The translations under genes were made by a program, and so were the position numbers. Below the pieces are notes generated by a model, which saw nothing but the letters and a program-made list of their open reading frames with translations, had not been told where the DNA came from and ran no database searches. A stretch of 37,059 nt of DNA from a virus (taxonomy: Duplodnaviria > Heunggongvirae > Uroviricota > Caudoviricetes): the IMG/VR virus record IMGVR_UViG_2657245588_000006. The stretch is one strand, 5' to 3'. The number at the start of each line of letters is the position of its first letter. Positions within the stretch are counted from its first letter, which is position 1. Positions 11,585-29,137 of the stretch are shown here, one piece after another.

Positions 11585-15265
<3,681 letters not shown>

Positions 15266-25259: not shown

Positions 25260-25841
25260 CTAAAGTTCATCGCGCCCGATGTAGCTGATTGCCGGTCCCT
25301 TCCAGGTCTTGTCGAAAACAGCAATAGCACCAGCGAAGAAAGCGCCTGTCGGCACCTGCTTCTCATCCTTCGGGATAAACCAGGCAGGCAGTTCAAAACC
25401 AATACGCCCGCGAATAAAAGCAATATGGTCCGCATCTTCCGGCCACCACACTTCGCTGGTGGCAGCTTTGATCAGGAAAACATAGCGCCCGCCCTTATCA
25501 CGCATGGCACTGGCATGTTTCATGATGTAACGCATGCCGGTGATGTATTGCCCCTCATGCTGACTGGCGCGGCTGTATGGGGGATTACCAAAGGCAGCAC
25601 CTTTAAGCTCCGCAAGACGTTCTGACCAGTCATGCGCCAGCGCGTTATCTTCCGCCGTGTAATACGCGGCACATTTGGCGTTATCACCGTCAGTGAACAG
25701 ATCCAGAACAAACGGGCCAAACAGGGTGTTAATTCCCCAGAAAATGTTGTCCGGCGTGCGCCACTGATCGCCCACTTCCTTCAGTTCATGGGCTGGTTTG
25801 TTCCGCAGTTCCACCAGCGCCTGGCAATATTTATTACTCAT
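25260..25841 (-). CDS. Phage DNA N6-adenine methyltransferase (Dam-type)
   Basis: ATG at 25841 overlaps the upstream stop (TAATG); catalytic motif FGNPPYS; about 193 aa. Confidence 0.75.
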   Translation of the reverse strand: MSNKYCQALVELRNKPAHELKEVGDQWRTPDNIFWGINTLFGPFVLDLFTDGDNAKCAAYYTAEDNALAHDWSERLAELKGAAFGNPPYSRASQHEGQYITGMRYIMKHASAMRDKGGRYVFLIKAATSEVWWPEDADHIAFIRGRIGFELPAWFIPKDEKQVPTGAFFAGAIAVFDKTWKGPAISYIGRDEL

Positions 25842-26335
25842 TAAGCCCCCACGTAATTCCCTGACAGATACCACTCTTCACCCGATGCAGCGCGCTTGCT
25901 GCTTTTCCGTAAACACCGCTCACGACGCGCAAGAAAATTGTTTCGCTCTTGCTGGGAGTGGCTTTCACGGAATGCCGCCATCCACACCGTTGCAGCACGA
26001 CGGTATAAGCCCCTGGACTCCAGTTCTTCCGCCTGGCGGGTCAGGCATAAAATCACCCGGGGATCGTTAGTGCCGACATAGAAATTGCGCACAGATCTGG
26101 TTTCTCGAACTGGTTGTGGTTCCGGTTCCTGCGCTCTCTCAGTCAGGCGCGGAAAATGTCTGCGTGTATCTCCTTCACAACGGTGAGCCACACGCCCACT
26201 CTGACGTAACTTGCTTGCAGACTGCAGAACGCGCTGCCGTGAGTAACCTGCAAAAGCATCCGTAATGTCTCCGGAAGTACACCCCGGATGGGCTTCAATG
26301 AATTTCTGAACGTCATTCAAAAGACTCATGATCAC
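25841..26335 (-). CDS. Hypothetical protein with N-terminal wHTH-like and C-terminal PerC-like region
   Basis: 164-aa ORF, ATGA-coupled to the O-like gene; C-terminal LTRQAEELESRGLYRRAATVWMAAFRESH resembles PerC/Pch-family activators as I remember them. Confidence 0.4.
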   Translation of the reverse strand: MIMSLLNDVQKFIEAHPGCTSGDITDAFAGYSRQRVLQSASKLRQSGRVAHRCEGDTRRHFPRLTERAQEPEPQPVRETRSVRNFYVGTNDPRVILCLTRQAEELESRGLYRRAATVWMAAFRESHSQQERNNFLARRERCLRKSSKRAASGEEWYLSGNYVGA

Positions 26336-27273
26336 CCCCTGAATCCTGCCGGGATCTGGCTGTAGTCCACGTTGTCGTAACTGGATTTGAAGTACGGGTC
26401 TTCGCGTTTTTCGGTGTACGTGCTGACGGACGGCGATAAGCGCAGGGAAAGCTCATCCCATTTTTCCCGCAACTTCGACGGGCTGAGCACGTTACGGCAC
26501 CAGAACGGATCGCGGCTGACGCGGCTGTACATCTCGCAGATTTGTTTGTGAGTACGACCATCCTGCACGCACATCAGGCGAATTTCGTTTGCCCAGGCTG
26601 TCCAGTTCGGTTCTTTGGGACGAACCACCTCGCCGTCACATTCGGCAGCCTGCTCGTACAGGGCGATGATTTTTTTCCAGAGCCACTGTGCGCAGGTCAA
26701 ATCATCCTGCGTTCCCCACTGGCGCTTTTTAGGGCTGAATACAACCGCATCAGGATGGCGAGTTAAAAACTCTTGTTCAGCCGTCTGCGTGTCCGGTTGC
26801 GAAGCGTCCGGACGAGAAGTTTTTTTATCTGACGGATCATGTTTTGATTTTACTGACGGATCCCCGCCAGATTCTGACGGGTGAAAACCCGCTTTTTTGC
26901 CAGATTTCGACGCATCAAATTTTGACTGGTCAGATTTTGATGCGTCAGATTTTGACGGGTCAGAATCTGACAGTTGAGAAAATGCCGCTGCCTGAAGCTT
27001 CGCAACGTTAAGCTGATAAACATTCGACGCATTGCGGTTACCCTGGCGACGCGCCTTACGCGTTAACCAGCCTTCTGCTTCCAGCCGTGCGATAGCCGTT
27101 CTGACGGTGCTCATCCCCGCGCCAATCTGGCGGGCAATGGTTTCAATTGATGGCCAGCACACACCTTCGTCATTACTGAAATCAGCCAGGCGGGCCATAA
27201 TTGCCACGCTGGATAACTTCATGCCTGACGCAGCGCAACCATCCCATACATAGCCGGTTAATTTAGTGCTCAT
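26332..27273 (-). CDS. Replication initiator, lambda-O-like replisome organizer
   Basis: 313-aa ORF; N-terminal HTH-like region, a central pentapeptide-repeat linker encoded by the iterons, and a C-terminal domain; sits downstream of the cro/CII-like genes. Confidence 0.65.
   Translation of the reverse strand: MSTKLTGYVWDGCAASGMKLSSVAIMARLADFSNDEGVCWPSIETIARQIGAGMSTVRTAIARLEAEGWLTRKARRQGNRNASNVYQLNVAKLQAAAFSQLSDSDPSKSDASKSDQSKFDASKSGKKAGFHPSESGGDPSVKSKHDPSDKKTSRPDASQPDTQTAEQEFLTRHPDAVVFSPKKRQWGTQDDLTCAQWLWKKIIALYEQAAECDGEVVRPKEPNWTAWANEIRLMCVQDGRTHKQICEMYSRVSRDPFWCRNVLSPSKLREKWDELSLRLSPSVSTYTEKREDPYFKSSYDNVDYSQIPAGFRG
26826..26974. repeat. ori: Iteron array (candidate replication origin) inside the O-like gene
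   Basis: Five tandem 15-bp units of consensus TCAGATTTTGACGGG at 26900..26974 plus three degenerate copies at 26826..26882, with an adjacent AT-richer stretch at about 26814..26860. Confidence 0.6.
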
Positions 27274-27282
27274 GACCGACCT

Positions 27283-27621
27283 CTATTTCCCTGAATTTAC
27301 GACGAAACTGTTCGAGCGGGCTGAAGCACTCATGCTCATAGCCTTCGCGGAGGTAGATAACCCGTTGTGTTTCCGGTTCCCAACGAATGACTCTGACGGG
27401 CACTCCGTAGTGATCTTTGAACCAGCGGTTAACTTGTCGCAAAGGACTGTCTCCTTTTGCCGGTTGAAATCACCCACAGCCCACTCTGCAAAGCTGTGGG
27501 TTACAATTTCCCTGTCACCTGGTACATTCACTGCATAGCAATACTCCACCTTCGCTTTTCCACCCGGTACAGGAAGTGCAATCAGTTGCGAGCGACGGTA
27601 GTGTGTTGTTAAACTGTTCAT
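27283..27621 (-). CDS. Hypothetical protein
   Basis: 112-aa ORF; ATG overlaps the upstream stop (ATGA); no family recognised. Confidence 0.5.
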
Positions 27622-28232
27622 GCGTTAGTTTCTCCACAACCAGAAGCAATCGACGCCACGACGCCCGGAGCTGCACACTCGCGGGCGTCATTACTTTCTG
27701 AAATGCAAAAAATTTTGTAGACAAGTGCTGCATGCTCCTGCAGCTTCGAAATTGAGAGATACAGCTCGTCGTTAATTGCTGTCTTCTCATGCGGTTCCAC
27801 TACACCGTCTTCGATTGCTGAACGAATCTGTTTTGAATAACTGCCGATCTGTTCAATGACTTCCAGCAGACGCTGGTTAATATCGGCGTTGTCCACATCC
27901 TCGACGTCAGGAAGAGACACAAAGACGCCATTTGCAGACTGCGCCACAGCATCAGCAATGAAGTGAGTTCCACCAGCACGTTGCAAAATCATTGCCCATC
28001 CCAGCGGGAAAATCTGATCGCCATCAGCACGAAGGCGGTTAAATAATGCGTTCTCTGTTACATCCAGCCAGTCAGCTGCTTCAGCGTAACCACCCGGCAA
28101 CTTTGCGATAGTTTTTCTGACAGCTTTCACGTACCACTCAGGCTGTTTTTCTACTTTCCAGTGATGCTTACCCACGGTTAGCCTCATCGTTCTGTGGTTT
28201 CTGTTAATCGATTTATCCATTAGATTTTTCAT
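27618..28232 (-). CDS. CII-like / YdaT-family regulatory protein (tentative)
   Basis: Second gene after the cro-like gene; track ORF starts inside the cro-like gene, so the start is placed at the ATG at 28232 (ATG at 28220 is an alternative). Confidence 0.45.
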
Positions 28233-28413
28233 AAAGCTCAGGTTTAAATGGCAACCGTCCGCAAGTTCTATATGCAGCTTCTGCTGCACGTCCTTTTGGA
28301 ATTAACTGGCCCGGACGGTTTCGCCACTGATAAACGGCTTCAGTTGTTATGCCGAAAAAAGCAGCAACTTTCTCAATACTGCCGAAGTAGCTTTCGATAT
28401 CGTCAGTTGTCAT
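28213..28413 (-). CDS. cro: Cro-like HTH repressor
   Basis: 66-aa ORF with HTH (GITTEAVYQWRNRPGQ); GGAGG RBS; divergent from cI. Confidence 0.8.
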   Translation of the reverse strand: MTTDDIESYFGSIEKVAAFFGITTEAVYQWRNRPGQLIPKGRAAEAAYRTCGRLPFKPELYEKSNG

Positions 28414-28510: not shown

Positions 28511-29137
28511 ATGGAAACGGTTGGTCAGCGTATAAAAGCTCTGAGAAGAGTTACCAGAACGTCCCAGAAAGAATTGGGTAAATTTTGTGGAGTAAGCGAC
28601 GTTGCTGTGGGGTACTGGGAGAAAGACATCAATACCCCTGGTGGGGAGGCACTTTCGAAATTAGCGAAGTTCTTCAATACGTCAATAGATTACATTCTTT
28701 ATGGTGCTGAGTTTGAAGGCAAACTCGTCACAAACATGCGCAGAGTTCCTGTAATATCGTGGGTTCAGGCTGGGCAGTTTACTGAGTGCAGGGCAGCAGA
28801 AGTGTTTAGTGAAGTGGACAAGTGGGTAGATACATCATTAAAGATTGGTGATAACTCATTTGCATTAGAGGTTAAAGGTGACTCCATGACTAACCCTAAT
28901 GGCCTCCCAACAATACCAGAAGGCGCAACAGTGATTGTAGATCCAGATGCAGAACCTCGTCATGGAAAAATAGTCATCGCTCGACTTGATGGAACAAACG
29001 AAGCTACAGTAAAAAAATTAGTCATCGATGGCCCTCAAAAGTTTTTAGTGCCATTAAATCCTCGGTATCCCAACATCCCTATCAATGGTAATTGCCTTAT
29101 CATTGGTGTAGTCAAAGGAGTTCAATACGAACTCTAA
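28511..29137 (+). CDS. cI: Prophage repressor, cI-type (HTH_XRE + S24 LexA-like autopeptidase)
   Basis: 208-aa ORF; N-terminal HTH, C-terminal GDSM Ser motif; divergent from the cro-like gene. Confidence 0.85.
   Translation: METVGQRIKALRRVTRTSQKELGKFCGVSDVAVGYWEKDINTPGGEALSKLAKFFNTSIDYILYGAEFEGKLVTNMRRVPVISWVQAGQFTECRAAEVFSEVDKWVDTSLKIGDNSFALEVKGDSMTNPNGLPTIPEGATVIVDPDAEPRHGKIVIARLDGTNEATVKKLVIDGPQKFLVPLNPRYPNIPINGNCLIIGVVKGVQYEL

Follow-up and report, generated by a model that had tools for sequence, protein, structure and literature searches.

The replication initiator gene of the prophage in IMG/VR virus record IMGVR_UViG_2657245588_000006 (Caudoviricetes; a stretch of 37,059 nucleotides, referred to here as the window) carries an array of 15-bp repeats. 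These repeats probably form, with an estimated probability of about 0.7, the initiator-binding part of the phage replication origin, located inside the initiator's own gene. This reading rests on sequence comparison. A first-pass annotation, made from the letters alone, had proposed a layout like that of lambda, with ori inside the initiator gene, and a different replication specificity, and both proposals gained strong comparative support from synonymous constraint, from the co-variation of repeats and N-terminal domain and from mosaic breakpoints. The prophage is lambdoid, SfIV/SfII-like and nearly complete; over its array region the identity was 98.8% with Shigella phage SfIV and 100% with a prophage in the chromosome of E. 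coli 51008369SK1.

The initiator gene and the domains of its product are the following (aa, amino acids; pLDDT, predicted local distance difference test):
26332..27273, minus strand: replication initiator gene, 313 aa; phrog_391 'replication initiation O-like', E 1.3e-134.
26980..27273, minus strand: N-terminal winged-helix DNA-binding domain (about aa 1-98); Pfam HTH_36 at E 4.2e-11 and a winged helix-turn-helix (wHTH) in the AlphaFold2 model.
26782..26979, minus strand: disordered interdomain linker region (about aa 99-164), pLDDT below 50 at aa 101-163, with the putative origin DNA inside it.
26434..26781, minus strand: helical C-terminal domain (about aa 165-280); its homologue in lambda is the P-binding C-terminal domain of O.

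The AlphaFold2 model was built on 22 homologues, and in the C-domain the block-mean pLDDT was mostly 83-93 between aa 190 and 280. The first-pass annotation had placed the repeats inside a coding sequence, as a pentapeptide-repeat linker, and this was confirmed: in the minus-strand open reading frame (ORF) the units encode Ser/Lys/Asp pentapeptides, and the repeats together with their half-copies (26826-26974) encode aa 100-150, between the wHTH and the C-domain. The same annotation had called the gene O-like, which proved right for one half of the protein. Comparison of the C-domain with lambda O gave a BLASTP E of 2e-25 with 29% identity over 210 aa (phi80 gp15 also gave E 2e-25), and hhalign aligned aa 165-306 to O 170-294 with a probability of 99.7%, the C-domain alone being aligned. 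The N-domain, on the other hand, is of the HTH_36 type and showed no PF04492 (Phage_rep_O) match at E <= 0.01, whereas lambda O (E 5.7e-36) and phi80 gp15 (E 6e-25), used as positive controls in the same Pfam scan, both matched PF04492. A lambda-O-type N-domain was also discarded by profile comparison, which found none. PDB sequence and Foldseek fold searches with the N-domain returned only generic MarR/GntR-like winged helices (E >0.004), and a Rep_3-type initiator was found neither by Pfam nor in the PDB sequence and fold searches. As judged from its sequence, the initiator is a protein that probably works like O and is half-homologous to O, but is outside the Phage_rep_O family.

The candidate origin within this gene is composed of the following parts:
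26900..26974, no strand assigned: five tandem 15-bp iterons, located by Tandem Repeats Finder (TRF), by a repeat and inverted-repeat search and by a pattern search; sense-strand core TCA-AAA-TCT-GAC.
26863..26881, no strand assigned: isolated near-palindromic iteron CCCGCCAGATTCTGACGGG (sense CCCGTCAGAATCTGGCGGG), 19 bp, 21 bp from the tandem array.
26853..26862, minus strand: GATCCGTCAG box 1, the half-copy CTGACGGATC; an iteron half-site with the Dam site GATC at 26859-26862.
26829..26838, minus strand: GATCCGTCAG box 2, again the half-copy CTGACGGATC; GATC at 26835-26838; box 1 lies 24 bp away, and an A7 run follows box 2.
26820..26859, no strand assigned: candidate DNA-unwinding element, an A/T-rich tract with strand asymmetry (A-rich sense strand).

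TRF detected one array at 26901-26964 (period 15, 4.3 copies, 77% matches, score 79; also reported with period 30, score 93), which had the top score in the 37-kb window, in agreement with the tandem-repeat check that the first-pass annotation had suggested. The score of 79 was reached by none of 60 mononucleotide shuffles of the window, the maximum of which was 58. Read in register from 26900 the units are CCAGATTTCGACGCA, TCAAATTTTGACTGG, TCAGATTTTGATGCG, TCAGATTTTGACGGG and TCAGAATCTGACAGT, and on the sense strand the five encode SDSDP SKSDA SKSDQ SKFDA SKSGK. Five perfect-period repeats and three degenerate copies had been listed previously. The 15-bp register is indeed exact, but the copies are not identical, matching the consensus given there at 11, 13, 13, 15 and 11 of 15 positions; likewise, three further copies do exist, but they are one good spaced copy and two half-copies. 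The spaced copy, CCAGATTCTGACGGG at 26868-26882, matches at 13/15 positions; its start and that of the first tandem unit are 33 bp apart. The dyad GTCA-N5-TGAC is present in every unit, and the palindrome at 26959-26971 (GTCAGAATCTGAC) is perfect. When up to two mismatches were allowed, the 13-mer core GTCAAAATCTGAC had 7 matches at six positions in the window, all within 26866-26971, against 1.13 expected by chance, and none of 100 shuffles reached 7.

The conserved element exceeds the tandem array, since it also includes the palindromic single copy and the two GATC-containing boxes and reaches 26826. The AT-richer stretch that had been noted beside the repeats was confirmed at 26820-26859, where the GC content was 32.5% compared to 50.8% for the window, the lowest 40-bp value of the gene and the 6.6th percentile of all 40-mers of the window, with an AT skew of -0.48. 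In the direction of transcription the tract comes immediately after the repeats, and the consensus of 78 relatives is likewise A-rich. Inspection of the tract by eye revealed no convincing resemblance to a DnaA box or an IHF site. A terminator-like hairpin was observed on the antisense (plus) strand at 26878-26891 (CGGGTGAAAACCCG then CTTTTTTG), between the tandem array and the isolated iteron; the codons under it (GKKAGFHP) vary among relatives. An RNA element at the array was considered and rejected: an Rfam scan of 26200-27700 gave sub-threshold microRNA-precursor matches only, due to the palindromic repeats. Two overlapping ORFs that run through the array (26844-27011, plus strand; 26850-27032, minus strand) were judged to be by-products of the repeats; some of the alternative frames are interrupted by stop codons in the repeat unit and in the fixed GATCCGTCAGTAA box.

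The regularity of the array could in principle have arisen at the protein level only, from a slippage-prone Ser/Lys/Asp linker whose DNA pattern is a by-product of recent expansion. The linker is predicted to be disordered, and the pentapeptide copy number ranges from 0 to 9 among close relatives, in five-residue steps in near-identical proteins, as slippage would give. Codon choice between species was determined for the initiator gene and locus from 80 bacterial species (78-81 genes per test, N-domain identity down to 56%). Serine codons of the linker were TCA/TCT in 87% and AGC/AGT in 5% of cases, compared to 30% and 44%, respectively, outside the linker in these genes. In the pentapeptides, TCA was the codon of the first Ser in 91% and GAC that of Asp in 71%, with the DNA consensus TCA AAA TCT GAC. 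The third base of the codon two past the first Ser was T in 82%, whatever the residue (TCT, TTT, CCT and ACT, for Ser, Phe, Pro and Thr), which argues against a purely protein-level explanation. The unit length is conserved as well: 15 was the best autocorrelation lag in 70 of 81 genes.

The cleanest test is provided by the non-tandem block ESGGDPSVxSKxDPS, because slippage cannot homogenise it. Its DNA consensus is TTTgACCCgtCAGAATCTGGnGGgGATCCGTCAGTAA...GATCCAtcAg, and the top-codon fractions were 1.0 for TTT, 0.97 for TCT, 1.0 for GAT, 0.87 for CCG and 0.99 for GTA, with the third base of the box-1 TCA at 1.0. In box 1 of 78 genes the third bases of GAT (1.0), TCA (1.0) and GTA (0.99) are fixed and that of CCG (0.87) is near-fixed. 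The isolated iteron is among the best-conserved parts of the element, with the consensus TTTgACCCgtCAGAATCTGG over 78 genes, a third-base frequency of 0.91 for GAA and top-codon fractions of 0.97 for TCT and 1.0 for TTT. The mean top-codon fraction was 0.88 for the 10 conserved columns of the block and 0.52 for 51 conserved columns of the N-domain (Mann-Whitney p 7e-6); thus synonymous positions are near-fixed across genera in the block and randomised in the neighbouring N-domain. The 13-mer was also confined to this region in the 80 loci, with 284 occurrences in the 270-bp linker-coding stretch (13.15/kb) and 8 in the other 418 kb (0.02/kb), an enrichment of approximately 650-fold. Since synonymous sites are near-fixed in the linker-coding DNA and not in the adjacent N-domain, these comparisons indicate that this DNA is constrained as DNA, and not only as peptide, across Enterobacterales, and a role at the protein level only is highly improbable. 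A Klebsiella genome (L087:3001-3936, P0054) retains the conserved box TTTGACCCGTCAGAATCTGG with its DNA unchanged but reads it in another frame, encoding VLTRQNLG instead of FDPSESGG; this would also argue against a protein-only role, although the frame switch could be a sequencing or assembly error, because the two compensating indels sit in homopolymer runs.

If the repeats are binding sites of the initiator, their sequence would be expected to follow the DNA-binding domain, and this pattern was found. N-domains with the recognition helix STVRTAI, the majority class, are accompanied by TCAAAATCTGAC repeats, the KTTVSAAIDEL class by TTGACCCCCCAA-type units with a 15-bp period (loci L010 and L014) and the STVITAI class by TTCAGATTCTGAACG repeats (locus L018). 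Phage mEp460_4F5 carries an unrelated N-domain on a C-domain of the window type and has five or six 23-bp repeats, SfV orf39 has repeats of approximately 21-24 bp, and lambda and phi80 have their own annotated iterons. The comparison with iterons of lambdoid phages suggested by the first-pass annotation thus showed that the repeats of lambda, phi80, SfV and mEp460_4F5 all differ from those of the window. Altogether the repeat type changes with the N-domain across at least five N-domain types, and the loci with fewer than two matches to the window 13-mer mostly belong to other N-domain classes. Several repeat types are present in E. coli and its phages, a diversity that one host factor alone cannot account for. 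In mEp460_4F5 (L004:2995-3030) three 12-bp repeats, TATTCTCTGTAG, were also observed after the 23-bp iterons, in an A/T-rich stretch at a position equivalent to that of the window tract.

Mosaic relatives showed the same association. Citrobacter phage phiNP shares window positions 26795-27272, that is, the N-domain and the array (four tandem units and an isolated copy), and then continues with a Phg_2220_C-type C-domain. Conversely, mEp460_4F5 shares 26332-26828, the C-domain, and then continues with another N-domain and other repeats. These breakpoints, at 26795-26828, indicate that the array always travels with the N-domain. The same N-domain and array were joined to a Phg_2220_C-type C-domain in 40 of the 80 species loci, and the full array was kept in all 14 phage records with a full-length gene. 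In a Salmonella enterica variant (L088, P0030; on 128 contigs) the tandem array has collapsed to one hybrid unit. The locus examined is a prophage remnant by icd; gene calling gave neither head nor tail-shaft genes in the stretch from the lysis genes to the tail-fibre gene.

The position of the breakpoints at the downstream edge of the element, and the joining of one N-domain and array to three or more different C-domains in many relatives, would also fit another kind of cis element, either a recombination 'joint' for the exchange of N- and C-domains or a site for a PerC-like or CII-like regulator. A recombination joint, however, leaves unexplained why dyad units recur at exactly 15 bp, why they change with the type of N-domain and why an A/T-rich tract adjoins them, and lambda-type phages also show breakpoints beside the origin. 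No other motif copy was found near promoters in the window or in the 80 related loci. We consider such an element very unlikely.

A copy of the array has already been studied in E. coli K-12, in another context. The yfdO gene of the cryptic K-12 prophage CPS-53 is an N-terminally truncated copy of the initiator gene (window 26332-27040 and L089:2501-3208 of E. coli NEB10-beta are 98.2% identical), and the array appears intergenic in K-12 because the gene lost its N-terminus there. The K-12 'yfdO/yfdP spacer' is by far the strongest site of the host LysR-type regulator SrsR (YgfI) in genomic systematic evolution of ligands by exponential enrichment (SELEX), with a peak intensity of 1206 compared to 150-290 at nine other loci (Kobayashi et al. 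2022, PMC9181523). At this site SrsR gave a 66-bp DNase I footprint and several gel-shift complexes, the footprinted 11-bp boxes being TCAaATTTTGa, TCAGATTTTGa, TCAGATTTTGa and TCAGAgTcTGa, and deletion or overexpression of srsR altered yfdONMLK mRNA (PMC9181523). The authors interpreted the boxes as an operator that activates yfdONMLK and mentioned neither iterons nor an origin (PMC9181523). The four K-12 boxes (L089:3070-3145; SrsR consensus TCAGATTTTGC) correspond to units 2-5 of the window array; one base, in box 4, differs between the 11-bp boxes of the window and those of K-12, and the whole units 2-5 differ at three positions. The K-12 array is therefore a strong protein-binding site in vitro, and the binder was SrsR.

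These data raise the alternative that the repeats are primarily SrsR/YgfI boxes that steer prophage genes further downstream, such as dam and the yfdN-like PerC gene, forming a regulatory site and not an origin. The SELEX, footprint, gel-shift and mRNA results all speak for it. On the other hand, other N-domain types in E. coli phages carry different repeats at the same place, which fits a cognate initiator, and both the motif and its 15-bp period are also retained in other genera, among them Pantoea, Providencia, Yersinia and Erwinia. In the intact phage the array is 300 bp inside the ORF with no promoter-like site nearby; a scan of 26200-27700 found no sigma-70-like site, so that an internal promoter at the array of the intact gene is not supported. 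The block that is fixed most strongly, GATCCGTCAGTAA, does not qualify as an SrsR box. Binding by SrsR is quite possibly real and additional, but it is unlikely to be the sole function of the repeats. Because of the co-variation with the N-domain, the conservation beyond Escherichia and the promoterless position deep in an intact ORF, we regard SrsR binding as secondary to the origin role, although it could still be biologically meaningful.

In the mechanism suggested by these comparisons, dimers of the N-terminal winged helix would occupy each of the five tandem 15-bp units as well as the isolated palindrome, and the resulting O-some-like complex would stress the adjacent 40-bp A/T-rich tract, which carries two GATC half-sites, leading to its opening. 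At a spacing of 15 bp (about 1.4 helical turns) neighbouring sites would lie on nearly opposite faces of the helix. The lambda-O-type C-domain would then recruit the host helicase by a P-independent route; lacking a P gene, the phage cannot supply a P protein for it. A tblastn search with lambda P against the whole window gave no match (best E 1.2), the gene downstream of the initiator gene being of the PerC family, and the window, its early genes included, yielded no gene resembling P, DnaC or DnaB. Among the related loci, eight have a P-like gene directly after the initiator gene (L010-12, L014, L053, L075, L077 and L079).

Several points weigh against an origin at this site. Its support is comparative, initiator binding to the repeats and the start of replication there being inferred, and the published binder of the K-12 array is a host LysR-type regulator, not the initiator. 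Slippage homogenises tandem units within a gene, so that clean evidence of selection comes only from the between-species comparison and the non-tandem block. The number of tandem units ranges from 0-1 to 9 among close relatives (one low-copy case was checked for prophage integrity), and the tandem part is therefore not strictly required for persistence of the gene. The A/T-rich tract is modest (40 bp, 32.5% GC, 6.6th percentile), and the phage encodes no helicase loader, which leaves the step after initiator binding unexplained.

Methylation may also be involved. The GATC of box 1 was invariant in 78 genes, and an adenine methyltransferase gene was present within 2.5 kb in 50 of the 80 related loci, and nearly all of these genes lay downstream of the initiator gene. 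With a phage Dam present, the fixed GATC sites may point to methylation control of the origin, which we regard as a lead only. A wider proposal, which is tentative and on balance doubtful, is that the origin is a three-way control point that combines SrsR gating, methylation-dependent firing through GATC and Dam, and P-less helicase loading. SrsR, a host stationary-phase regulator, may act on the same iterons as the initiator, so that the host gates replication or the phage senses the state of the host; the two near-invariant GATC boxes and the phage Dam may make firing methylation-dependent, as at oriC; and the lambda-O-type C-domain may load the host helicase without a P protein.

The ori of lambda lies in gene O and consists of four 18-bp iterons and a 40-bp A/T-rich region, and it involves the O-some. 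The window element resembles it in having dyad-bearing direct repeats with an A-rich centre in the middle of the initiator gene, within the DNA that encodes the flexible linker between the N- and C-domains, and in the A/T-rich, strand-asymmetric tract immediately downstream of the repeats. The C-terminal domain is homologous to that of lambda O, with 29-37% identity and E 2e-25. A lambda palindrome, TCGTCAGAGAATTCTGGCGA, beside the A/T-rich tract of that phage resembles the isolated CCGTCAGAATCTGGCGG copy of the window, but this is a resemblance only. The two systems differ in the N-domain (HTH_36 and not Phage_rep_O), in the unrelated sequence of the repeats and in the lack of a P gene in the window. 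They also differ in spacing, since the window has five 15-bp tandem units and one spaced unit, whereas lambda has four at 20-24 bp and phi80 also has a spacing of about 20-24, and in the two near-invariant GATC boxes in the A/T-rich part of the window element.

As in phi80 gene 15, P22 gene 18 and phage L gene 18, where each initiator type has its own repeats in the coding region, the window initiator is associated with repeats of a distinct type; there are six 11-bp repeats in phage L and four, each about 20 bp long, in P22 (PMC8022706). The phi80 gp15 protein combines a Phage_rep_O N-domain with the P-like gp14, and the P22 and L initiators are paired with a DnaB-type helicase, whereas the window phage has no such partner of either kind. 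Iteron plasmids (Rep_3/RepA/pi) also have tandem initiator-binding repeats, here putative, by an A/T-rich unwinding element; unlike them, the window initiator shows no similarity to Rep_3 WH1-WH2, its iterons are in the initiator ORF and no inverted-repeat operator was found at the promoter. The K-12 CPS-53 SrsR cluster is the same DNA as the window array, with the gene truncated there and intact here, the array being in the ORF. Literature searches for an origin of SfV, SfII or SfIV found none, and the SfIV genome paper does not mention one. A full-text search with the motif returned the SrsR paper only (PMC9181523), and no description of the window repeats as an origin was found. The principle of an origin within the initiator gene is well known; the present case is set apart by the N-domain family, the 15-bp period, the fixed GATC boxes, the absence of a P gene and the published binding of a host factor to its K-12 copy.

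The initiator gene belongs to an early operon with the order repressor (28511-29137, plus strand), Cro-like, CII/CP76-like, DUF4222, initiator, PerC-family, Dam, LexA-DNA-binding-domain protein and RusA. In SfIV it corresponds to the 'replication protein' gene SfIV_41, with 98.8% DNA identity. Two of the neighbouring genes are the following:
25841-26335, minus strand: yfdN-like gene after the initiator gene, 164 aa, with a PerC-family C-terminus and an N-terminal part without known function.
25260-25874, minus strand: phage-encoded Dam gene.

The start of the yfdN-like gene and the initiator stop overlap by 4 nt. Many phages with otherwise unrelated initiators (SfV, mEp460 and Stx2 phages) have the final 76 bases of the initiator gene in common, at 96-97% identity, and in E. 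coli genomes this stretch is annotated beside yfdN. The CII/CP76-like ORF at 27618-28289 (minus strand), when read from its first start codon, overlaps the cro-like gene at 28213-28413; its true start is probably further downstream, because SfIV annotates a shorter gene of 552 nt. In the structural-gene region a two-copy 21-bp tandem repeat, CGGCGTCCATTTGACGCCAAA, was seen at 14500-14541 (TRF score 56).

This type of initiator and putative origin is very common in E. coli and is distributed widely in Enterobacterales: among 5426 complete E. coli genomes, 2723 carry at least part of the initiator gene and 1575 carry at least 80% of it. The papers that were searched treat the repeats only as SrsR boxes. 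If the origin reading is true, the strongest SrsR/YgfI site of K-12 would be the remnant of a phage origin in a truncated yfdO, and the SrsR regulon and the phenotypes ascribed to CPS-53 and yfdO would need to be re-read. The element also offers a clean natural case of dual coding, in which synonymous sites appear near-fixed by a function of the DNA while the peptide is a disordered linker that tolerates a changing number of five-residue units, and the presence of a lambda-O-type C-domain without a P-type loader raises a concrete question on how the helicase is recruited. The interest of this putative origin would rise if its SrsR, Dam and P-less aspects prove to be functional.

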